A model generated the notes under the pieces. The model was not told where the DNA came from, ran no database searches, and was given only the letters and a program-made list of their open reading frames with translations. DNA of 64,000 nucleotides from a virus, in IMG/VR virus record IMGVR_UViG_3300028394_000040; one strand, 5' to 3'. Positions 11,789 to 40,520 of the stretch are shown in pieces. Every line of letters starts with the position of its first letter. Position 1 is the stretch's first letter. The translations under genes were made by a program, and so were the position numbers.

Positions 11789-12279
11789 TAAATTGCTCCT
11801 TTACTCTTTAAAGTATTCATCAATCCCGTAAAGTCCGGTACTACATCGATAGTTACTTGGTTTATATCTGTTGTAGGCCTATTAGAAGATAACATCTGCT
11901 CTACAGTTCCTACTGCTGCAGTCTCTTCTCCGTCAACCCCTCCTATCATACCAAAGTTAGGAGCCATAGATGCATCTGCATTTATCATTGTACGGTATTC
12001 GGTACTGGTCATCGACATAGCAGTTTCATTTAATAAATCAGCTATAGGATCTCCTGAGCTAACAGGTTTCAAATTTTTACTTTCCATAGCTAACGAAATA
12101 GAGTTTGCTAAATTCGTTGAACCTTTAACTGGTTTGTGTACTGGTAATGTATTAGAGATATTTCTATTTTCTTTTAATAAAGGTAATAATTCTTCTTTAA
12201 GTAAAGCTTTTAACTCTACTCTCATTACAAGAGTGACCTCCTCTCTAATTATCTTTCTAAGAATATCTAATTTACTCAT
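11788..12279 (-). CDS. Hypothetical protein
   Basis: 163 aa with N-terminal LRKIIREEV..LLKE repeats. TATTTATA at 12284-12291. Confidence 0.65.
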   Translation of the reverse strand: MSKLDILRKIIREEVTLVMRVELKALLKEELLPLLKENRNISNTLPVHKPVKGSTNLANSISLAMESKNLKPVSSGDPIADLLNETAMSMTSTEYRTMINADASMAPNFGMIGGVDGEETAAVGTVEQMLSSNRPTTDINQVTIDVVPDFTGLMNTLKSKGAI

Positions 12280-18715: not shown

Positions 18716-18741
18716 AAAAAAGCCTACCGTAGAAGTAGGCT
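18716..18741 (-). terminator. Intrinsic terminator after the leader-protein array
   Basis: AGCCTAC-loop-GTAGGCT stem followed by a T run on the minus strand. Confidence 0.8.
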
Positions 18742-18751
18742 CTTTAAGGTT

Positions 18752-19201
18752 TTATCTATCTCTATCATGGTAGGCATCTGGGTCTTGACCGAAATCACTA
18801 TCAAATTCTGTAGCAGCATCTTCGGCAGCAGACATTAACTGCCTGTTAGCTTCTTCAGAGGCTTCTAGTTTTGGAATAAGAGAATCCAAGAATTGTTTAT
18901 CTTCTATGTAATCACCTTCTCCTTCTTTTATAGCTCCCTCTATATTTACTATTTCATAGTCGGTAACTTCCCATCCTCCTTGATCATAAAGATATCCATC
19001 CATATATTCAGCATCTTTGTAATCACCGCTAACTTTTAATGTACCTGCTATTTCAGCATAGACAACACCATCTAATTCTATATCTGATATAGAGAATGGA
19101 TAAGAAACAGTAGAATCACTGCTTCTCTCATTAATACCTTCTTTAATAATACCTGCTAATTGTTGAAGTCTAAATGCTTCGTTTATAAGTCCTTTTTTCA
19201 T
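18752..19201 (-). CDS. Acidic protein with shared MKKGLINEAFRLQQLAGI leader (copy 6)
   Basis: 149 aa, D/E-rich body. Confidence 0.8.
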   Translation of the reverse strand: MKKGLINEAFRLQQLAGIIKEGINERSSDSTVSYPFSISDIELDGVVYAEIAGTLKVSGDYKDAEYMDGYLYDQGGWEVTDYEIVNIEGAIKEGEGDYIEDKQFLDSLIPKLEASEEANRQLMSAAEDAATEFDSDFGQDPDAYHDRDR

Positions 19202-19213
19202 TATTATTTTTTA

Positions 19214-19729
19214 TTAAATAGCTTTTTCATAACGTTCAGCTTTCCATACATAGTTTTCTATTCCAGAATCGTAAGTAACTATAATCATATCGGGCATAAG
19301 TATTTCTTCGTCATCCCACCAGGTTTCTATACTTTCAGACCCCTCAACAAATACAGGTTCGTTATTAGAGTAGTATTCTTCCCAATTTCCATTAAAACCA
19401 TCCTCCTCAACTACATCACGTAAAACACTCTCATAGTCTTCTAAGAGTTGAGATACTAAGTCAAAATAGGAAGATTTTTCAATATCACTATAATCTTGTA
19501 AATTACCTCCAGGTCCTCCTGACGTAATATCGCCGGAATAGACTGTTTCATCTAATTTTATACCTTCTTCTTTAGCTCCTTGAAGTAAAGTATCCTTAGC
19601 TATTTTAAGTAGGTTTTGAATACCTTGTTCTATATACTTAGGACTATCGAATTCTTCATTAACTGGTATTGGAGTAATACCTGCTAACTGTTGAAGCCTA
19701 AAAGCTTCGTTTATTAATCCTTTTTTCAT
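19214..19729 (-). CDS. Acidic protein with shared leader (copy 5)
   Basis: Start placed at MKKGL (ATG 19729) rather than the ORF-track start at 19756, by alignment with paralogs. Confidence 0.8.
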   Translation of the reverse strand: MKKGLINEAFRLQQLAGITPIPVNEEFDSPKYIEQGIQNLLKIAKDTLLQGAKEEGIKLDETVYSGDITSGGPGGNLQDYSDIEKSSYFDLVSQLLEDYESVLRDVVEEDGFNGNWEEYYSNNEPVFVEGSESIETWWDDEEILMPDMIIVTYDSGIENYVWKAERYEKAI

Positions 19730-19739
19730 TTTATTAAAT

Positions 19740-20237
19740 TTACTTATAATGAACATTAGCTTTTAAACTAGGAGAATCAAGTATCATATCATACTCTTCT
19801 GTAGCGGGGTTTATAACATCTCCTTTTTCAAATACTATAGACCCGTAGTCTTCGTATTTACTATCTACGTCTGACATAGCAGCAATCATGTTTAACTTAT
19901 CAAAGTAGTATAGATCCTTTAAGATTAATATAGGACCTCCTTCTGCTTCGTTTTGCAAGCCTTCAGTTTCACCTAACTCATCGCGATAAGAATCAGAAAT
20001 ATCTTCGACTGTATCGTGTAAAAACTGATTAAAAGGAAGCTTTTCAGTCATTAACTGAGTTAGTATGTTAACTACAGTCTCCGGTTGGGATTCAACCATT
20101 GTTTCAAAATATCTATGAATAGTACCTTCATCTAATTTCAAAGCATCAGGATTAGCATCTCCAAACAATTCATTTACGGGCCTCAAACCTGCTATTTGTT
20201 GAAGTCTAAATGCTTCGTTTATAAGTCCTTTTTTCAT
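19740..20237 (-). CDS. Acidic protein with shared leader (copy 4)
   Basis: Begins MKKGLINEAFRLQQIAGLRPVNE. Confidence 0.8.
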   Translation of the reverse strand: MKKGLINEAFRLQQIAGLRPVNELFGDANPDALKLDEGTIHRYFETMVESQPETVVNILTQLMTEKLPFNQFLHDTVEDISDSYRDELGETEGLQNEAEGGPILILKDLYYFDKLNMIAAMSDVDSKYEDYGSIVFEKGDVINPATEEYDMILDSPSLKANVHYK

Positions 20238-20252
20238 TTTATTTTTTTTAAT

Positions 20253-20738
20253 TTAAACTTCATTAACTCCAATTTGATCTAGGAAGTCCCAGATCTCTTC
20301 TGAATCTGCTTCTTCTACAAGGTACTCAACTAAACTTTCTACAGAATCGTATCCATTTTCTTGCATGTAACCTTTAACTAGAGGTAAATCTGATGAAATA
20401 AATGCAGCTGATTCTTCTTCATTGAAGATCATTTGATACTCACCCTCTCCTAATTTATTAAAGGAAGCAAATTCTTCCATCATTCTAACAGCATCTTCAT
20501 CTGTTCCATTGTCAGTTCTAAAATTTACTTGCTCTTCATACTCATTTTGCATGTAAGAATCAGGATCGCCAGGAACAATTATTAACTCTACATCTTCAAT
20601 TTCTCCTCTACTCCCTCCTGTAACTTTGATGTATTTAGAACCTACTTGTTCTTTTTGCAAGCCTACATTAAAGTCTTCTTTGATAATACCTGCTAACTGT
20701 TGAAGTCTAAATGCTTCGTTTATAAATCCTTTTTTCAT
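20253..20738 (-). CDS. Acidic protein with shared leader (copy 3)
   Basis: Begins MKKGFINEAFRLQQLAGIIKE. Confidence 0.8.
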   Translation of the reverse strand: MKKGFINEAFRLQQLAGIIKEDFNVGLQKEQVGSKYIKVTGGSRGEIEDVELIIVPGDPDSYMQNEYEEQVNFRTDNGTDEDAVRMMEEFASFNKLGEGEYQMIFNEEESAAFISSDLPLVKGYMQENGYDSVESLVEYLVEEADSEEIWDFLDQIGVNEV

Positions 20739-20749
20739 TTTATATTAAA

Positions 20750-21643
20750 TTATTGCCAAATTTCATATAAGTGACTATCGGAGAATGCTACAATTAATTT
20801 ACAGTCTAGGCCCTGCACTGCATCCTCATCGTCTCCTAATAAGCCATCTCCCGCTTCTGGACCATATTCAAACTGGATACCCCCTGTTTGATCGAAATCC
20901 GGGTCTTCTTCAGAATACATAGCTCTTTCAGCTTCTAAATTTTGCAATAACTCTTCACCTAGTATATCTTCAGCGTCTCCTATAGAATGACTACCGTAAT
21001 CGGTAATACAAATAACAGGTTGTCTTAAATCAATACCTGCTTTCTGAAAAGCTTCTGTTATCGACTCATCAGCACTAATAATGTATTCTTTCTGCATGCC
21101 CATAGTTCCTTTTTTTTGCATGCCTGGTTTTGCACTTTCCATCTCCATTTCATTACCTTGTTGGTCGTAGTAGTAAGTATATCCTTCTCCATCACCATAA
21201 CCACTTACTTCAAAACCAGTAGCTGTTTGTTCTATAGAGATAACAATTCCACCTTCCATATCTACGTCTCCTACTGTGAATGACGTACCATTAGGGAAAG
21301 AAACACTTTTTATTTCTTTTGGAGAGAAAAGAGCAGTTTTAGCTTGACCCATTTGCTCTCTTTGCATGCCTCTCGACATACCTTCAGCTTCGATTGTAAA
21401 GATAACAATTTTTTGACCATGTATATCTTGATCATACTCTTTGGAAGAAGAAATACCTGCTTTACGTAGTTTATCCTCAATGAATTTCTCATTCTTTATA
21501 AGGTCACTTACAACAGTCTTGCCGTTTTCATCTTCGTATGCACCTAAAGTATTTAAAGTATTAGAATCACCTATTTCATTAATAGGTTTAATACCTGCTA
21601 ACTGTTGAAGCCTAAAAGCCTCTTTAATTAATTGTTTTTTCAT
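20750..21643 (-). CDS. Acidic protein with shared leader (copy 2)
   Basis: Begins MKKQLIKEAFRLQQLAGIKPINE; 297 aa. Confidence 0.8.
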   Translation of the reverse strand: MKKQLIKEAFRLQQLAGIKPINEIGDSNTLNTLGAYEDENGKTVVSDLIKNEKFIEDKLRKAGISSSKEYDQDIHGQKIVIFTIEAEGMSRGMQREQMGQAKTALFSPKEIKSVSFPNGTSFTVGDVDMEGGIVISIEQTATGFEVSGYGDGEGYTYYYDQQGNEMEMESAKPGMQKKGTMGMQKEYIISADESITEAFQKAGIDLRQPVICITDYGSHSIGDAEDILGEELLQNLEAERAMYSEEDPDFDQTGGIQFEYGPEAGDGLLGDDEDAVQGLDCKLIVAFSDSHLYEIWQ

Positions 21644-21659
21644 TTTAATTGATTGTTTT

Positions 21660-22241
21660 TTAATTTAAGTAATCCATTAATAAATCGTGAACAAAATCAC
21701 TATCGTCATTTAACATCTCTAGTTCTTGTTCTGTATAAGGAGAACCGTCGCTATGTTCGGCATAGTCAATATAAGCATCACTATAGTCCGGTCTGTCCCA
21801 ATGGTGAACATCGTCAAAAGTAACGTTGTAAACATCTCTTGGATCAATACCTTGGGATGCAATGCCGGCCATCTCTTTTAACCTAATTGCCTCTTTGATT
21901 AAACCCTTTTGAGAGACCCCCGCATTCTCATATATATATTTACCTTTTTTCTTCGTCGCTTCGTAGAGAGATGCATCATGAGATGCCATCTCAGAGCCTT
22001 GTCTTTCCTCATAGTCATCTATCCCTTTAGCATTTTCTGCCTCCGATGAATAGATATGTTTATTCAGAAACTCGATTATATCGTTATCTTCGAAGCCATC
22101 CTTGATTAGGTCGTCCATAATGGCCGATGCCGCCTGGCGAAAGGCATGCAAATCTTTTTGATTGACAAGGCCTTCCATTCTATTATCGCCTTCTTTCATG
22201 CCTAGGCTATCTAGGGCTTCTTTAATAGTTCTTTTTTTCAT
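21660..22241 (-). CDS. Acidic protein with a partial N-terminal and an internal copy of the leader (copy 1)
   Basis: Begins MKKRTIKEA; internal QKGLIKEAIRLKEMAGI precedes an acidic C-terminal domain. Confidence 0.8.
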   Translation of the reverse strand: MKKRTIKEALDSLGMKEGDNRMEGLVNQKDLHAFRQAASAIMDDLIKDGFEDNDIIEFLNKHIYSSEAENAKGIDDYEERQGSEMASHDASLYEATKKKGKYIYENAGVSQKGLIKEAIRLKEMAGIASQGIDPRDVYNVTFDDVHHWDRPDYSDAYIDYAEHSDGSPYTEQELEMLNDDSDFVHDLLMDYLN

Positions 22242-22263
22242 TCTTTAGTATTAGCTATACAGT

Positions 22264-22271
22264 TATAAATA
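22264..22271 (-). promoter_or_regulatory. Putative late promoter TATTTATA heading the leader-protein array
   Basis: About 23 nt upstream of ATG 22241. Confidence 0.55.
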
Positions 22272-23055: not shown

Positions 23056-23514
23056 TTAGTCCTCTATCGCTCTCCATGCCTTCTGTATAGGTCTACGTAG
23101 TCCTTCACTATAGTCGATAATAACGCCATCTACAACGGCCAATGCATGTCTTCTTACTACTACGAAGTATTTACCTTTGTTATAGGTCTTAGCGAATGTT
23201 CCTACGGTCATTGATCGTTCTACCATCTTACCTTGGTTGTTGTAGTAGGTCTTGATCTCTCTCCCGTTAAGAGTTATAATGCTATTATCATTTAAGAATC
23301 CTTTAGTGATGTTAGTAAGAGTAACTCCTTTGTTGAAACGTCTCTTAAAGTTATCACTAGCATAACCTAATGCATCCTGATATGGAATGTTCTTTACTAT
23401 AGCTAATGCCTTAACTGAACAGTCGCTGCTTTGATACTTGAATGGAGTAGTGCTTAGCTCGGATAAGCCTTTGGCAATTAGAGCCTCCTTGATGTGTACG
23501 AATTGATTTGACAT
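23056..23514 (-). CDS. Conserved phage protein with DC..A motif (papain-like/peptidase-like fold possible)
   Basis: SDCSVKALAI..HALAVVDGVIID Cys-His-Asp pattern; has its own promoter cassette. Confidence 0.6.
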   Translation of the reverse strand: MSNQFVHIKEALIAKGLSELSTTPFKYQSSDCSVKALAIVKNIPYQDALGYASDNFKRRFNKGVTLTNITKGFLNDNSIITLNGREIKTYYNNQGKMVERSMTVGTFAKTYNKGKYFVVVRRHALAVVDGVIIDYSEGLRRPIQKAWRAIED

Positions 23515-23536
23515 AACCTTTATTTTTTAATGTACC

Positions 23537-23575
23537 TAAATGTAAGAAGAAGGAGGCAGAATGGCAACTGCCTCC
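23537..23575 (-). promoter_or_regulatory. Host-type early promoter overlapped by a hairpin/terminator
   Basis: GGAGGCAG-TTGCCATT-CTGCCTCC-TTCTTCT-TACATTTA, i.e. TTG-N20-TAnnTTTA. Confidence 0.75.
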
Positions 23576-23586
23576 CTATCTTTCTT

Positions 23587-23961
23587 TTAAAGAGCGTTAG
23601 CCGGCTCCTCTACAGTAACGTAGACGTCTATAGCTTGCTCAATGATCCTAGATAGACTACTACGACTTACTTCATAGCTATCAACCTCTATACAGTTACC
23701 GCTTAAGCTAAACTCAGTATCAGAGATAACATCATCGATACTATCTTCTATATGACTGACTACCTCTTCAACTAAAGACTCATATTGCATGGGCGTTAAC
23801 TTAAAGAATATTTCTTCTTCGTTTGACTTAGCCCCTAACTGAGATCTCATCTGATCTTCCATACCGACCTTCTCGATAATGTACTGCATGCTTTCGCCAT
23901 CTATGTTGATACCGTTCAACACTGCGATTACTAACTCGATGTTTGCATTTTGATTTGTCAT
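23587..23961 (-). CDS. Acidic hypothetical protein (early)
   Basis: 124 aa with AAAGGTT-ATG leader. Confidence 0.75.
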   Translation of the reverse strand: MTNQNANIELVIAVLNGINIDGESMQYIIEKVGMEDQMRSQLGAKSNEEEIFFKLTPMQYESLVEEVVSHIEDSIDDVISDTEFSLSGNCIEVDSYEVSRSSLSRIIEQAIDVYVTVEEPANAL

Positions 23962-24003
23962 AACCTTTATTGTTTAAATTGTGATTGATTAATTACTACT
24001 TTA

Positions 24004-24036
24004 TAAAGATAATAGATAGGATGCAGAAAGGCAACT
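24004..24036 (-). promoter_or_regulatory. Host-type early promoter
   Basis: AGTTG-N20-TATCTTTA. Confidence 0.7.
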
Positions 24037-24085
24037 AGATCATAAGAAAGTTTTAAAAATAAAGTTTAAAAAAAGATCCCAACTT

Positions 24086-24118
24086 AGTTGCTCTTACGAG
24101 CTTTTTTTCGTAATTTAC
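24086..24118 (+). promoter_or_regulatory. Plus-strand copy of the early promoter with no downstream ORF
   Basis: AGTTG-CTCTTACGAGCTTTTTTTCG-TAATTTAC. Confidence 0.45.
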
Positions 24119-24152
24119 GGTACTTTTTAATCCACCCCTAACTTTCTCCTAT

Positions 24153-24182
24153 AAAAAAACCTCCGTCAAAGACAGAGGCTTT
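24153..24182 (-). terminator. Intrinsic terminator (possibly bidirectional)
   Basis: CCTCTGTC-TTT-GACGGAGG followed by T7 on the minus strand. Confidence 0.75.
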
Positions 24183-24211
24183 AGTAATTTAACCTTAACT
24201 ATGAATACAAC

Positions 24212-24382
24212 CTACTTAACTTTCCTTCGGCTAACTAACTTGTTAGCTTGTTTTGTAATTGATTCGTTGACACGACGTCCTGCGATTACATTATGGACGT
24301 GTGACAAACTGTAACCAGTTGTGATTGCTACCTTAGCAAGATCCCCTTGCTTCTGGCGCTCTTTAAAAAATGTGTTTACCAT
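24212..24382 (-). CDS. Small Cro/XRE-like HTH protein (56 aa; not in the ORF track)
   Basis: MVNTFFKERQKQGDLAKVAITTGYSLSHVHNVIAGRRVNESITKQANKLVSRRKVK; has its own promoter and terminator. Confidence 0.75.
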   Translation of the reverse strand: MVNTFFKERQKQGDLAKVAITTGYSLSHVHNVIAGRRVNESITKQANKLVSRRKVK

Positions 24383-24406
24383 TGTTACGATGTTTTTAAG
24401 TTCTCT

Positions 24407-24439
24407 TAAATCTATGAACTTGTTTACGAGAAGGCAACT
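24407..24439 (-). promoter_or_regulatory. Host-type early promoter
   Basis: AGTTG-N20-TAGATTTA. Confidence 0.7.
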
Positions 24440-24450
24440 ATTTTCAAAGA

Positions 24451-24476
24451 AAAAAAAAGGGCCCTAAGGCCCCTTC
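24451..24476 (-). terminator. Intrinsic terminator
   Basis: AAGGGGCCTTAGGGCCC followed by a T8 run. Confidence 0.75.
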
Positions 24477-24480
24477 TCTC

Positions 24481-25290
24481 TTAGGCGACTAATTCGTAGT
24501 CTGTAAACTGAGTAGCCATCTCCCAAAGGTTCTGATTAAGCTCTACGTCTGCAAGCATGTTAGTAATCTTTCTAACCTTACGCTGCTTACCTGCTTTATT
24601 CTTAACAACGAACCCTCCGTGAGTTAAATGCTCTTGAACTCTATTAAAGACCTTCCAAAGAGTATTACCTTCATCCTCCTTGCGAGTAGATTCAACCATT
24701 AAGACTAACTCTTCCTCAGTCATTGCAGCATCCTCTCCGAAACGAATCGCAGCTGCCTTAGTAACGAAGTTCTTAATCTCATCTTCGGTCATAACCTTCT
24801 CAGTGAAAGCATTAATGCGACCAACTACTACCGGCAAAGCTCCTACTGCATTATTTACTAACTGCTGAAGCTCTCCAAATGAATAACCGAAGTGACGAAG
24901 ATTAAAAGATCCTAAATCTTTATCTTTGATGACCAATCCATTAGAGCAGATCAATCTGAAGACTCCAATTTCAAAACGTAACCTTCCCCAACCTCTATGG
25001 TTATTGATGATTAACACTTCCGGATAAGCTTCTACCTCGCCATTCTCATCCAAGATAGCAATCTCTGGATTATAAAATTTAACTAAGTGCTTACCGTAAG
25101 TAAGTTGAACTGGATTCTTACTCGTCATAGCTTTCGCATCTGAAACGAACCATCCTAACTTCTCCATATCTTCTATGATCTGGAATGTAGGAAGAAAAGA
25201 ATACTTTGCTGATACAGAATCAATTGGAGACTCTGTGTAAATTTGCGGAGCTAAAGCTTTGATTTCCGCTGGATTCAATTTGTGTGACAT
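24481..25290 (-). CDS. DUF932/DUF945 family protein
   Basis: SAKYSFLPT, H.VKF, IINNH, GVFRLICSNGL, RKEDEGNTLWKVFNRVQEHL and LNQNLW motifs. Confidence 0.85.
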   Translation of the reverse strand: MSHKLNPAEIKALAPQIYTESPIDSVSAKYSFLPTFQIIEDMEKLGWFVSDAKAMTSKNPVQLTYGKHLVKFYNPEIAILDENGEVEAYPEVLIINNHRGWGRLRFEIGVFRLICSNGLVIKDKDLGSFNLRHFGYSFGELQQLVNNAVGALPVVVGRINAFTEKVMTEDEIKNFVTKAAAIRFGEDAAMTEEELVLMVESTRKEDEGNTLWKVFNRVQEHLTHGGFVVKNKAGKQRKVRKITNMLADVELNQNLWEMATQFTDYELVA

Positions 25291-25327
25291 AACCTTTTTG
25301 TTTAAATGAATAATTAATTTCTATACC

Positions 25328-25360
25328 TAAAGATCGTTGTTTAGTTTCAGACTACCAACT
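25328..25360 (-). promoter_or_regulatory. Host-type early promoter (variant)
   Basis: AGTTG-N20-GATCTTTA. Confidence 0.55.
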
Positions 25361-25498
25361 TTTCTTCTTATTTTTTTTGATCGTTGTATAAAATCTTTTG
25401 TCGAACGAATCATCTTTGATATTAAAGTAGGTCAAAGTGAATCCTAAAAAAGCTCCTAGAGCTAATAGGATAGCAAGAATGGCTGCTAATAGATTCAT
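25352..25498 (-). CDS. Small membrane protein (48 aa; not in the ORF track)
   Basis: MNLLAAILAILLALGAFLGFTLTYFNIKDDSFDKRFYTTIKKNKKKSW. Confidence 0.55.
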   Translation of the reverse strand: MNLLAAILAILLALGAFLGFTLTYFNIKDDSFDKRFYTTIKKNKKKSW

Positions 25499-25499
25499 T

Positions 25500-25691
25500 T
25501 TATTTACGTTTAGCAAACTTACCCGTCTCGAAATCCCGGAGGACCTTCTTGCCTCTCTTGGTTGTGATCTCTTCGATCATTTGGATGTCTTGCTTGATAG
25601 CTTTGATGCAATAGAATGCCGCTACCGAAAGAATTACTACGCTACCTACTACTTGGAAGATAGCCATTGGAGTGTTTAACATTTCTGACAT
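25500..25691 (-). CDS. Small membrane protein
   Basis: TM helix and a basic C-terminus with an RD..TGKF.K motif. Confidence 0.7.
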   Translation of the reverse strand: MSEMLNTPMAIFQVVGSVVILSVAAFYCIKAIKQDIQMIEEITTKRGKKVLRDFETGKFAKRK

Positions 25692-25715
25692 AACTTTTAT
25701 TTTTTGATTGATACC

Positions 25716-30110: not shown

Positions 30111-30611
30111 TTAATCAATTTTATCCAAATTCAAAGGAACGTATTTATCCATTCCAGAATCGTATTGATAGAAGTTAAAGTTATCTATTCCTCTATACTC
30201 CGGTTTTAGTATCCCTATCTTAGAACTCTTTTGAAATGATAATCTGTTAACTCTATTGCCATTTGGTATCATTGGATAATCTTCTTCTTTCCAGTTAGTA
30301 GTTTCAAAACTATCTCCAGGATATGTTTCTTTAGCTTTAAATGTTATCAGGTACTTTGACTTAGATGAACCTCCATCATATAATCCTCCTTTGTAAAAAT
30401 TAGGAGCAGTTGAATTTTGTTTATCGGCTGATAGCTTTGCATTAATAGTATAGTCAAACTCATCTAGATCTTCATTTATACCTATGAAAGCTTTCTCTCG
30501 TTTAATATTAGATAGTACCTCTACTTTATTAGTTACGTGAGTCCAAGTATTAGACTCATCCTTATAAACCTTTTCAGTAATTTCTTTAAGTATGTTGATT
30601 AGCTTAATCAT
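30111..30611 (-). CDS. Hypothetical protein with MIKLINILKE leader (possible packaged protein)
   Basis: Late motif TATTTATT at 30625-30632; N-terminus contains an I/L-x-E site. Confidence 0.65.
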   Translation of the reverse strand: MIKLINILKEITEKVYKDESNTWTHVTNKVEVLSNIKREKAFIGINEDLDEFDYTINAKLSADKQNSTAPNFYKGGLYDGGSSKSKYLITFKAKETYPGDSFETTNWKEEDYPMIPNGNRVNRLSFQKSSKIGILKPEYRGIDNFNFYQYDSGMDKYVPLNLDKID

Positions 30612-38686: not shown

Positions 38687-38718
38687 TAAATATAGATACT
38701 TAGGTTCAATTATGCAAC
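38687..38718 (-). promoter_or_regulatory. Host-type promoter
   Basis: GTTG-N20-TATATTTA followed by AAAGGTT-ATG. Confidence 0.6.
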
Positions 38719-40520
38719 AGTTCTTTAGACTTTTTTCTAGTTTCTTCTACGTCAAATAGCTCCTCGTATTGTGCAAGCATAGCTTCTACTACTGGATGTC
38801 TGTGATTAGTTTTTAACATTATAGTCTCTACATCCTTTACTTTCTTAGATACCGTTAATAAGAATCTAAAACCGCTTTCGTTTTTATACTTTAAATCTAC
38901 TTGAGCTGTATCTCCACAAATAATCATCTTACTCCTAACTCCTAATCTAGATATAATCATGCTCATTTGTTCGTTAGTACAGTTTTGAGCTTCATCTACT
39001 ATTACTATAGAATCTAAAAAAGTATTATGGGTTACCTGACAGTTATCTGTTATATATAGCGAATCTTCTGCTGATACTGATATACACTGTGTCTCTTCAA
39101 AGGAGTATTCTTCAATAGAGACTATTCTTCTAGAAGGTTTTTCCCTAACTTCAAATAAAGATGCTTTTCGTTCTAAAGAGAAAGGATTAAATGCTTCAGG
39201 CATTCTTATCGACAGGTTGTAGCAATCGTGGTTGTAGTTTCTTCCGTACTTATCTACAGTTCCTGCAATTTTATTTAAAGCTACCTTTACTGTACCCCCT
39301 AAAGATTCTACTAAGAATTTTACTCCTTCAGCTAGCTTGTCTGAGATAGTATAGTAATGAGCAACAGAAGAGGTTTTTCTTTTAGTATGTGCACCTCCTG
39401 AGAATATACTCCCATCTGTATCCATAAGACCTCTAAGAAGATCTAATCTTTGCTGGATAGAACCTAGTAGGTATACTCCAGGGATAAACTTTGTTAAAGA
39501 AGAAGTACCTATTAGCTCTAATTCATCTAGTAAATTATAAAGGTTATTTTTAGCGTGACTAGATCTTACTACCTTACCGATGCCGTAATCATATAACGAA
39601 CCTACTCTCTTCTTTATAACAGTACCTTCAGGAAGAAGCTCTTGTACTTTGTCGATAAGCTCTGTATCTGCACTACAGAACGATATTCCTCCTCTTATAC
39701 ATCCATCTCCTAATAATAGTCCTAGAAGGTAAGGGCTAAGCGTTAGCTGCTTCTCTTTAAAATCTACAGCCTCTACCATTGGAAGAGACCATTTCTTTTT
39801 GTTAGTACCTGGTTGAAATATTTGCTCTTTTAACTCTAGAGTAGATTTTACTATCTTTGATTTGATTAACGGTTTGTTTGTATCTGTTACCTCCCATAAG
39901 TGATTTCCAGAAGCAAGTACCGATGAACCATCTGTAAAGCTGATCTTGTATACCTGCTCTGTACCCTGAGGAAATACTCCGGTAATCTTACATGGCTTTC
40001 CGTTTCTTCCTATAACCTCTTCACCTACTTGAAGGCTTCCCATTTCTTTCCATCCTTCAGGGGTTAGCACCTTACTATGTAAAGGCTGAGCTCTTCCACG
40101 CATGAAGGCTACAGGAACTATCTCTACTGTTTCATCTTTAATAATGCCGTCTATCTTATCTTTATTATAAAGCTGATAAAAGTTAGAGTAGATTGGTTGC
40201 ATCCAAGGTTGCATTTTATCTTTTAAGTCTCCTGGAAGGAATCCTATCTCTTCTCTTGAAACTGTAGGACGAGTTACTACTATCTTCTTTACTTGCTTTT
40301 TAAATAACATATCTAAAGCAACGTTACAAGCTAGTAATGTCTTACCACTTCCTGCCTGTCCTGAAAGTATAGATACAGTTGTGTTAAGGATTATTTCTTT
40401 TGCTGCTTTTTGTTCTTCGTTAAGTTGTAATTGAAATTTAATAGGTGCTTTTTTGTTTGCTTTCTCTTCTCTAATTTGTTCGGTAATTGAATCGAACTTC
40501 TCTGATCTATTTTCAGCCAT
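38706..40520 (-). CDS. phoH: PhoH family ATPase containing an intein
   Basis: GQAGSGKT Walker A, IGFLPGDL, FMRGR|intein|TF, VDEAQN, GDTAQVD and HRHP motifs. Confidence 0.95.
   Translation of the reverse strand: MAENRSEKFDSITEQIREEKANKKAPIKFQLQLNEEQKAAKEIILNTTVSILSGQAGSGKTLLACNVALDMLFKKQVKKIVVTRPTVSREEIGFLPGDLKDKMQPWMQPIYSNFYQLYNKDKIDGIIKDETVEIVPVAFMRGRAQPLHSKVLTPEGWKEMGSLQVGEEVIGRNGKPCKITGVFPQGTEQVYKISFTDGSSVLASGNHLWEVTDTNKPLIKSKIVKSTLELKEQIFQPGTNKKKWSLPMVEAVDFKEKQLTLSPYLLGLLLGDGCIRGGISFCSADTELIDKVQELLPEGTVIKKRVGSLYDYGIGKVVRSSHAKNNLYNLLDELELIGTSSLTKFIPGVYLLGSIQQRLDLLRGLMDTDGSIFSGGAHTKRKTSSVAHYYTISDKLAEGVKFLVESLGGTVKVALNKIAGTVDKYGRNYNHDCYNLSIRMPEAFNPFSLERKASLFEVREKPSRRIVSIEEYSFEETQCISVSAEDSLYITDNCQVTHNTFLDSIVIVDEAQNCTNEQMSMIISRLGVRSKMIICGDTAQVDLKYKNESGFRFLLTVSKKVKDVETIMLKTNHRHPVVEAMLAQYEELFDVEETRKKSKELLHN
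39024..40091 (-). mobile_element. Class 3 (Ala1, W-C-T triplet) intein with LAGLIDADG homing endonuclease, 356 aa
   Basis: Starts AQPLHSKVLTPEGW; block B NHLW; LAGLIDADG motifs LLGLLLGDG and LLRGLMDTDG; block F TQCISV; ends VTHN|T. Confidence 0.9.

Follow-up and report, generated by a model that had tools for sequence, protein, structure and literature searches.

Six adjacent genes on the minus strand of a viral DNA share a short leader peptide (IMG/VR record IMGVR_UViG_3300028394_000040; the whole stretch analysed, 64,000 nucleotides (nt) long, is called the window here). This leader is probably a capsid-targeting propeptide that mimics the C-terminal tail of the phage scaffold, on a locus where cassettes are shuffled. 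The six genes (G1 to G6, 22241-18752) form one tight operon, with intergenic gaps of 10-16 nt in the list of open reading frames (ORFs). As the first-pass annotation of this DNA had described, five of them start with the leader and the sixth carries it internally; a six-frame scan for the leader word E[AS]x[RK]L[QK][QE]xAG found six copies in the 64-kb window, all in genes of the array. Two observations are new here: the match between the leader and scaffold tails, and the avoidance of the protease motif in the cargo bodies behind the leader.

Leader peptide and putative protease site

The N-termini of G2 to G6 fit MKK[GQ][LF]I[KN]EAFRLQQ[LI]AG[IL], with the leader word at residues 8-17. The word scan placed the 18-residue leader of G2, MKKQLIKEAFRLQQLAGI, at 21590..21643, and the equivalent leaders of G3, G4, G5 and G6 lie at 20685-20738, 20184-20237, 19676-19729 and 19148-19201, respectively (all minus strand). 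A 41-nt stretch of leader DNA is exactly the same in G3, G4 and G6 and recurs in G5 with three synonymous mismatches; no match is expected from shuffled sequences. In G2, synonymous differences are more numerous than in G5. As these two leaders differ at synonymous sites, conservation seems to act at the peptide level, with recent copying on top. In several of the genes, the leader had been described as conserved at the DNA level. This held for G3, G4 and G6, but the divergence of G2 and G5 makes the peptide the conserved unit. A signal peptide was ruled out, because the leader is not hydrophobic. In AlphaFold2 monomer models, which covered two of the six array proteins (G2 and G3), the leader was predicted to be helical in G2 with low confidence, and residues 1-30 of G3 were disordered.

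All five N-terminal leaders in the window are followed, 3-8 residues on, by [ILV]-x-E (IKE, INE or VNE). The first-pass annotation had pointed to such a word, and it proved to be general. Among 120 leader proteins, 117 have [ILV]xE at exactly 3, 5, 7 or 8 residues past AG[ILV], against about 12-15% expected by chance. We found 32 distinct leader-to-site spacers (IKE, xPINE, xPVNE, xPINSLNE, xPLYE, xPVGTLSE and others), in which the middle residue is variable. In T4, gp21 cleaves after L/I-x-E, and a change from Glu to Asp blocks processing (PMC9026906).

The internal copy in G1, KGLIKEAIRLKEMAGIA, is at residues 111-127 (21861..21911, minus strand), with the leader word at residues 117-126. 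It has no [ILV]xE after it; GIDPRD stands there instead. A homologue of G1, P0028, holds an intact internal leader, ...MKKGLINEAFRLQQLAGI..., followed by a C-terminal body unlike that of G1. Therefore, the form seen in G1 seems to be a read-through fusion.

Outside the window, a word-indexed profile search found 142 leader proteins, and a HMMER search of 1.84 billion cluster representatives gave at least 949 leader clusters (50% identity) at E<=0.001. The position of the leader was read from 150 listed clusters among the 949; in all but 7 of these 150, it was at the N-terminus or lay no more than about 25 residues away. The bodies behind it differ widely and are mostly without a Pfam family, and most database members are acidic. 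In a Pfam survey of 76 leader proteins, only six scattered single matches appeared: NT5C, HAD, DUF3310, NifT, SlpA and FliD_C. Variable cargo had been the expected outcome of such a search, and the earlier idea of a portable, constant tag was confirmed at the level of sequence. Our literature search found no paper describing the leader, and neither blastn with the array nor tblastn with the leader gave a match among 50,697 phage records.

Some long leader proteins (P0141, P0162 and P0145) have two or three copies of the tag, placed between domains. They are evidently read-through fusions of adjacent cassettes, as in G1. Domains of these proteins include a motif ...IIDGHHRWSQ..., which we tentatively take to be ParB/sulfiredoxin-like. 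An NT5C/HAD nucleotidase domain also occurs in multi-tag proteins, and some cargo may therefore be enzymes.

Scaffold tails and head genes in related phages

The source appears to be a large uncultured T4-type lake phage of about 170 kb, related to Flavobacterium phage immuto. Its baseplate wedge shares 48% identity with the wedge of vB_FspM_immuto, a Flavobacterium phage from the Baltic with a 160-kb genome (genus Immutovirus). A 169,428-bp metagenome contig with an exact-cluster homologue of G3 gives the likely genome size. Phage immuto has one leader gene, gene 188, starting MKKQILSEQFRRMQKLAGIITE... The window-type leader was not found at E<=1 in five immuto-like complete genomes.

In a listing of acidic ORFs, the scaffolds adjoining the protease in head-module loci were found to end ...R[WM]Q[KQI]LAGII(K). 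When the leader profile was run against 2093 head-module ORFs (hmmsearch), it matched solely the N-termini of small proteins (17) and the extreme C-termini of scaffolds (27). The alignment of leader to scaffold tail spans leader positions 2-20. In a second and more diverse set of protease-centred loci, the leader matches were N-terminal in 53 cases, C-terminal in 9 and internal in 1. With the scaffold tail as query, 580 database proteins were matched. The best 120 of these 580 end APKKQIVEVNxxxSR[MWL]Q[QM]LAGI(I)K, one of them RLQQLAGIK, and none of the best 120 came from the 169,428-bp contig. These matches indicate that the leader copies the C-terminal tail of a gp22-like scaffold, as seen in related T4-type aquatic phages. 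T4 gp22 itself ends ...VYAKVASRF, with no LAGI-type motif; its N-terminus, MLKEQLIAEA, and the leader start MKKQLIKEA resemble each other in pattern only. In several phages, the C-terminus of the scaffold is the coat-binding element.

We also surveyed head genes around the leader. The head module of immuto comprises TerL, a gp20 portal, a gp21-like protease (Peptidase_S77, PF03420, E 7e-36), an acidic scaffold and gp23. An S77 protease was encoded 2-10 kb from the leader gene in all five leader-bearing IMG/VR contigs tested. In contig L093, the order is terminase, portal, two ORFs, leader gene, two ORFs, protease, one ORF, scaffold and capsid protein, so that the leader gene occupies the position of T4 genes 67/68.

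Two further contigs, L128 and L139, encode a non-acidic protein of 263-286 amino acids (aa) near the protease, ending ...KEI[NT]RLQKLAG[LI]K. The tag is therefore C-terminal also on at least one head-region protein that is not a scaffold.

Exchange at the locus

Three versions of the locus could be compared. The first is the window. The second is in L001, an IMG/VR sister contig of 65.7 kb without the head region, in which both flanks of the array are 95-98% identical to the window. The array of L001 consists of G1, G2', X, G3', a leader remnant, a 66-aa ORF and G6; G4 and G5 are missing from it. In the third version, contig L101, the genes are G1'', X'' and G6'', and then the same terminator hairpin follows. 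Comparing the DNA of the window and L001, we found that similarity ends at about codon 24 of G2, just past the leader and INE. It returns at the linker GMQREQMGQ, runs through the leader of the next gene and ends again. G3 is only 74% identical to its counterpart in L001. With breakpoints at the end of the leader and at the linker word, the leader and G[MLF]Q[KR]E seem to be joints of exchange. A recombination role of the leader at a variable locus had been suggested before, and the breakpoints at leaders between near-identical phages, together with the three locus versions, bear this out. In immuto, only a single unrelated gene lies between the T5orf172 gene and the phosphohydrolase, which implies that the array is an expansion in the clade of the window.

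The leader remnant of L001 (L001:10508-10552) lies between G3' and the 66-aa ORF. Its 15 profile positions stand in a 27-aa frame that ends with TAA, and it has the look of a scar left by the loss or replacement of a cassette.

Cargo bodies and their modules

All six array proteins have a net charge of -18 to -30, with D+E making up 19-24% of their residues. Scans of Pfam and PHROG with the six proteins gave nothing above threshold. We recognised about ten modules: two in G1, three in G2, two in G4 and one each in G3, G5 and G6. The six cargo domains counted in the first-pass annotation therefore understated the mosaic structure, whereas its description of the bodies as D/E-rich and dissimilar was correct. 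Among 11 leaderless modules, the best probability in profile-profile comparison (hhalign) was 17.6%. BLASTP among the bodies gave nothing convincing; the weak hints were G2 against G6 (E 0.002) and the N-terminal domain of G1 against X (E 1e-4), both from a tiny database.

G1 (22241-21660, 193 aa) is the fusion form, with a leaderless N-domain, the degenerate internal leader and a C-domain. G2 (21643-20750, 297 aa) has the leader, INE and modules A, B and C. In G3 (20738-20253, 161 aa), the leader is followed by IKE, a GLQKE linker and an alpha/beta body, and in G4 (20237-19740, 165 aa) by VNE, module G4a, GLQNE and module G4b. G5 (19729-19214, 171 aa from the MKK start) has the leader, VNE and a body. 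G6 (19201-18752, 149 aa), with the leader, IKE/INE and a body, is the last gene of the locus and is kept in all three locus versions. The linker word GMQRE at the joint of modules A and B of G2 lies at 21356..21370, and further copies of the linker word are at 21086-21100 (G2), 20649-20663 (G3) and 19947-19961 (G4), all on the minus strand. In leader proteins, the linker word G[MLF]Q[KRNTE]E occurs 44 times, against 0.4 expected.

The modules were also found in other combinations. Database relatives have the orders A+B+C, A+B+D, D+D, A+E and B+C+D, and the leader also occurs with B or C alone. P0032-34 consist of the leader and G4a alone, and in P0003 G4a is fused to the G3 body.

In the model of G2, the leader is a helix, and disordered linkers connect three small domains (27-84, 110-165 and 193-297). 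Residues 31-160 of G3 form an alpha/beta body with a predicted local distance difference test score (pLDDT) above 90. The G2 model had no match in BFVD. For the G3 body, no trustworthy fold match was found in the PDB (Foldseek E >=0.07; VIA-align wide best Z 5.9, under the noise level of 7-8), and the score of 0.82 in a search of the ESM Atlas with the G6 body was at chance level. Gp22-like scaffolds are long, acidic, helical and rich in protease sites, and start MSNKDLxKxAIAEAK, whereas the modelled cargo bodies are globular alpha/beta or beta modules. We reject membership of the bodies among scaffolds as judged from these models and from the motif counts given below; it seems that the two have the terminal peptide alone in common.

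Interpretation and alternatives

In the reading that we consider probable, the 18-residue leader MKKxLIxEAFRLQQLAGI would be a copy of the gp22-like scaffold C-terminal tail, as the sequence match in related phages suggests. For such a copy, the simplest mechanism would be use of the docking site of the scaffold tail. By taking this site in the assembling prohead, the leader might bring the fused protein into the core by co-assembly. A gp21-type prohead protease would then cut at [ILV]-x-E, 3-8 residues past the leader. The cut would free the folded acidic modules, which might survive in the head, as they avoid the motif. The leader and G[MLF]Q[KR]E would also be short homology blocks, at which modules or genes may be swapped, fused or lost between close relatives. 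After loading, the products might be ejected as host-takeover or anti-defence proteins, or they might be accessory proteins of the core. Hypervariability of the locus is the one observation that favours ejected effectors, and an anti-defence or DNA-mimic role of the cargo is a speculation from acidity and hypervariability. We also propose, tentatively, a wider possibility for T4-type aquatic phages: any protein that gains a scaffold tail of about 20 residues and an (I/L)-x-E would be loaded and released in the head. The window would hold the most evolvable form of this system, in which the leaders and G[ML]QKE joints, as handles for recombination, would build combinatorial, partly polyprotein-like acidic effectors that are ejected with the DNA against host defences.

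The bodies behind the leader avoid the motif at which they would be cut. In 178 non-redundant cargo bodies, the observed/expected ratio of [IL]xE was 0.70 (z -7.1), and that of [ILV]xD was 1.25 (z +6.2), although the sequences in these statistics are related and the z-scores overstate their independence. The ratios in the same bodies were 1.28 for [ILV]xK, 1.23 for [ILV]xQ, and 1.06 each for [FYW]xE and [AGS]xE. In a control of 61 other ORFs of the window, the ratio of [ILV]xE was 1.12. Comparatively, [IL]xE was enriched in 88 scaffolds (ratio 1.6, z +20), a figure that coiled-coil periodicity could partly inflate. The six bodies of the window alone had the motif 20 times against 22.4 expected, which is not a significant depletion in so few sequences. 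That cargo avoids a motif which scaffolds accumulate fits proteins surviving beside the protease, and it would argue against a degradable filler of the core.

The limits attached to these counts weigh against our interpretation, and so do several other points. The putative mimicry of the scaffold tail is established in relatives and not in the window phage itself. The array is next to the early region and distant from the head genes. Strongly acidic cargo would be awkward beside packed DNA and resembles the core proteins that T4 expels; the T4 internal proteins are small, basic and DNA-binding, whereas the array cargo is acidic and in many cases has several modules. The linker G[ML]QKE was considered as a canonical gp21 site and ruled out, as it does not fit (I/L)-x-E. 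For the capsid-targeting system proposed in the first-pass annotation, the portable tag, the protease site, the protease-bearing phages and the breakpoints give indirect and convergent support, but the charge of the cargo departs from the T4 model.

It is conceivable, though unlikely, that the leader does load proteins into the head, but as accessory core components or scaffold fillers like T4 gp67/gp68, which act in assembly and are then removed or inert. The bodies are strongly acidic, as core proteins are, T4 gp67 being extremely acidic; the leader gene of L093 stands at the gp67/gp68 position, and the T4 core proteins are cleaved and expelled. However, the modelled bodies are globular folded modules and not coiled coils, and the protease motif is depleted in cargo bodies and enriched in scaffolds. 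In addition, even near-identical phages differ at the locus, as assembly parts seldom do.

We regard it as quite improbable that an amphipathic helix of the leader and scaffold tail docks to a partner other than the capsid (a chaperone, the portal/terminase or a host protein), with [ILV]xE inherited and not a cleavage site. The leader helix was predicted at low confidence only, and in related sequences the site could be conserved by descent. Yet every one of the 32 spacers ends in [ILV]xE, the middle residue of which varies, and the bodies avoid exactly [IL]xE and not [ILV]xD. The confinement of the motif to protein ends in head-module loci and the co-occurrence of the leader with an S77 protease also speak against such a partner.

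A leader that is mainly a DNA-level joint for recombination or gene conversion, or a translation-initiation module of selfish cassettes, with no targeting at the protein level, would agree with the three leaders identical over 41 nt, the breakpoints at leaders and linkers and the gene-less remnant in L001. It is very improbable, however, as the peptide has stayed conserved through synonymous and conservative changes in at least 949 clusters, and the scaffold ends in the same peptide without any cassette junction there. Ordinary expansion of tandem paralogues, with only the N-terminus still recognisable, is scarcely credible: the genes are in tandem and similar in size and charge, and BLASTP gave the weak hints mentioned above, but profile-profile probabilities are low, predicted secondary-structure classes differ between modules, and modules are found singly behind the leader and in many combinations.

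If our reading is true, the contents of T4-type heads would follow a testable rule, namely that cargo carries a copy of the scaffold tail followed by a protease site. Nearly a thousand unknown protein families in abundant freshwater and brackish phages would be candidate virion-delivered proteins. The locus would be a natural case of domain shuffling with joints visible at base resolution, and the leader would be a candidate packaging tag for foreign proteins in capsids of Bacteroidota phages. Our literature search found no virion proteomic data for immuto or its relatives.

Expression signals and neighbouring genes

An octamer, TATTTATA, at 22271-22264 (minus strand), 30 nt upstream of the G1 start, is a candidate late-type promoter element. 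Among the 13 minus-strand copies of TATTTATA in the window, six lie 12-32 nt upstream of a start codon. The starts preceded by it include those at 12279, immediately upstream of the baseplate genes, and at 2485, immediately downstream of the two largest ORFs. We infer that this class is late. The single late-type promoter reported earlier at 22264 is thus supported as an element common to other starts, but its timing is only inferred. A sigma-70 promoter scan gave no enrichment. The single terminator reported at 18716 was recovered as an intrinsic terminator after G6 (about 18745-18712, minus strand), with a 12-bp stem (-15.2 kcal/mol, z -4.4) and then a U-run.

The minus strand carries every gene of the window. 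On one side, the array is flanked by a T5orf172-type gene (22861-22394), and on the other side (18637-16952) by a 109-aa ORF, a glutaredoxin-like gene and an HD phosphohydrolase. Upstream of the array (23514-25700, minus strand), each gene is preceded by a GGAGGCAG...CTGCCTCC hairpin and then TTAGGTA...AAGGTT-ATG. This hairpin cassette, of a host-type promoter/terminator pattern, differs from the TATTTATA motif. Elsewhere in the window, a 604-aa protein (38706-40520, minus strand) has an N-terminal PhoH-like ATPase region, and its longer second region has matches among PHROGs with the annotations large terminase, DnaC-like loader or DarB-like. PhoH stands alone as a short gene beside the capsid gene in immuto and L098.

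A second family of N-terminal leaders, M[IL][KR]Lx[DN][IL][IL]xE (MIKLINILKEI..., MIKLIDILKEV...), was also observed. It has 10 residues and ends in [IL]xE, like the T4 capsid-targeting sequence (CTS). There is one copy in the window (30111-30611, minus strand), and another starts the 66-aa basic ORF of the sister array (L001:10569-10769). Five copies in L099 (394, 1557, 1874, 2637 and 4923) are interspersed with MKKQ-type leader genes immediately upstream of the terminase/portal. Very basic proteins with the motif ...KADRC.RIA.RKYDKPSAYRSGAIVRCR.G... are encoded directly upstream of MKKQ-type leader genes at L003:5185-5655 (immuto gene 187) and L099:394-1155. The one in L099 starts with a MIRL-type leader.

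Comparison with known systems

Short terminal peptides that bring a protein into an HK97-fold shell are known from the C-terminal helix-turn-helix of P22 gp8, which binds coat, and from encapsulin cargo-loading peptides, and they can be transferred to foreign cargo. In the present case, the peptide is N-terminal or internal in the cargo and C-terminal in the scaffold, and its binding to coat is putative. As a protease site follows the array leader, the tag would be removed, unlike the peptides of P22 gp8 and encapsulins. A second comparison is with the giant phages phiKZ and SPN3US, in which the prohead protease sites are S/A/G-x-E. Many head-internal proteins of these phages are loaded and then trimmed by the prohead protease (PMC5694885, PMC7411985); the abstracts consulted describe no single common leader or tandem cassette array for the ejection proteins.

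The closest comparison is with T4. The T4 internal proteins have a common CTS of 10 residues that is removed by gp21, the set is not the same in all T-even phages, and one member, IPI*, is injected and inhibits restriction (PMC9026906, PMC3012670). These two reviews cite Mullaney & Black 1996 and Repoila et al. 1994 for the CTS on IPI, IPII and IPIII and for the polymorphic internal-protein (IP) locus of T-even phages, and they do not identify the physical target of the CTS. Like the CTS, the array leader is a short N-terminal propeptide common to otherwise unrelated proteins, and it ends in the gp21 site (L/I)-x-E, in a lineage with a T4-type core, scaffold and S77 protease, as seen in relatives. 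As at the T4 IP locus, close relatives carry different sets of cargo, exchanged at the conserved leader.

There are also clear differences. The array leader has 18 residues plus a spacer, against 10 in the CTS, and it is not related in sequence to the T4 CTS. It matches the C-terminal tail of the scaffold, and we found no report in the literature of such a match for the T4 CTS. The array has a second joint word, G[ML]QKE, and its scale is larger, with at least 949 clusters. For the array, packaging is predicted from sequence. The locus appears to work like the CTS and internal-protein system of T4, without being a member of it by sequence.

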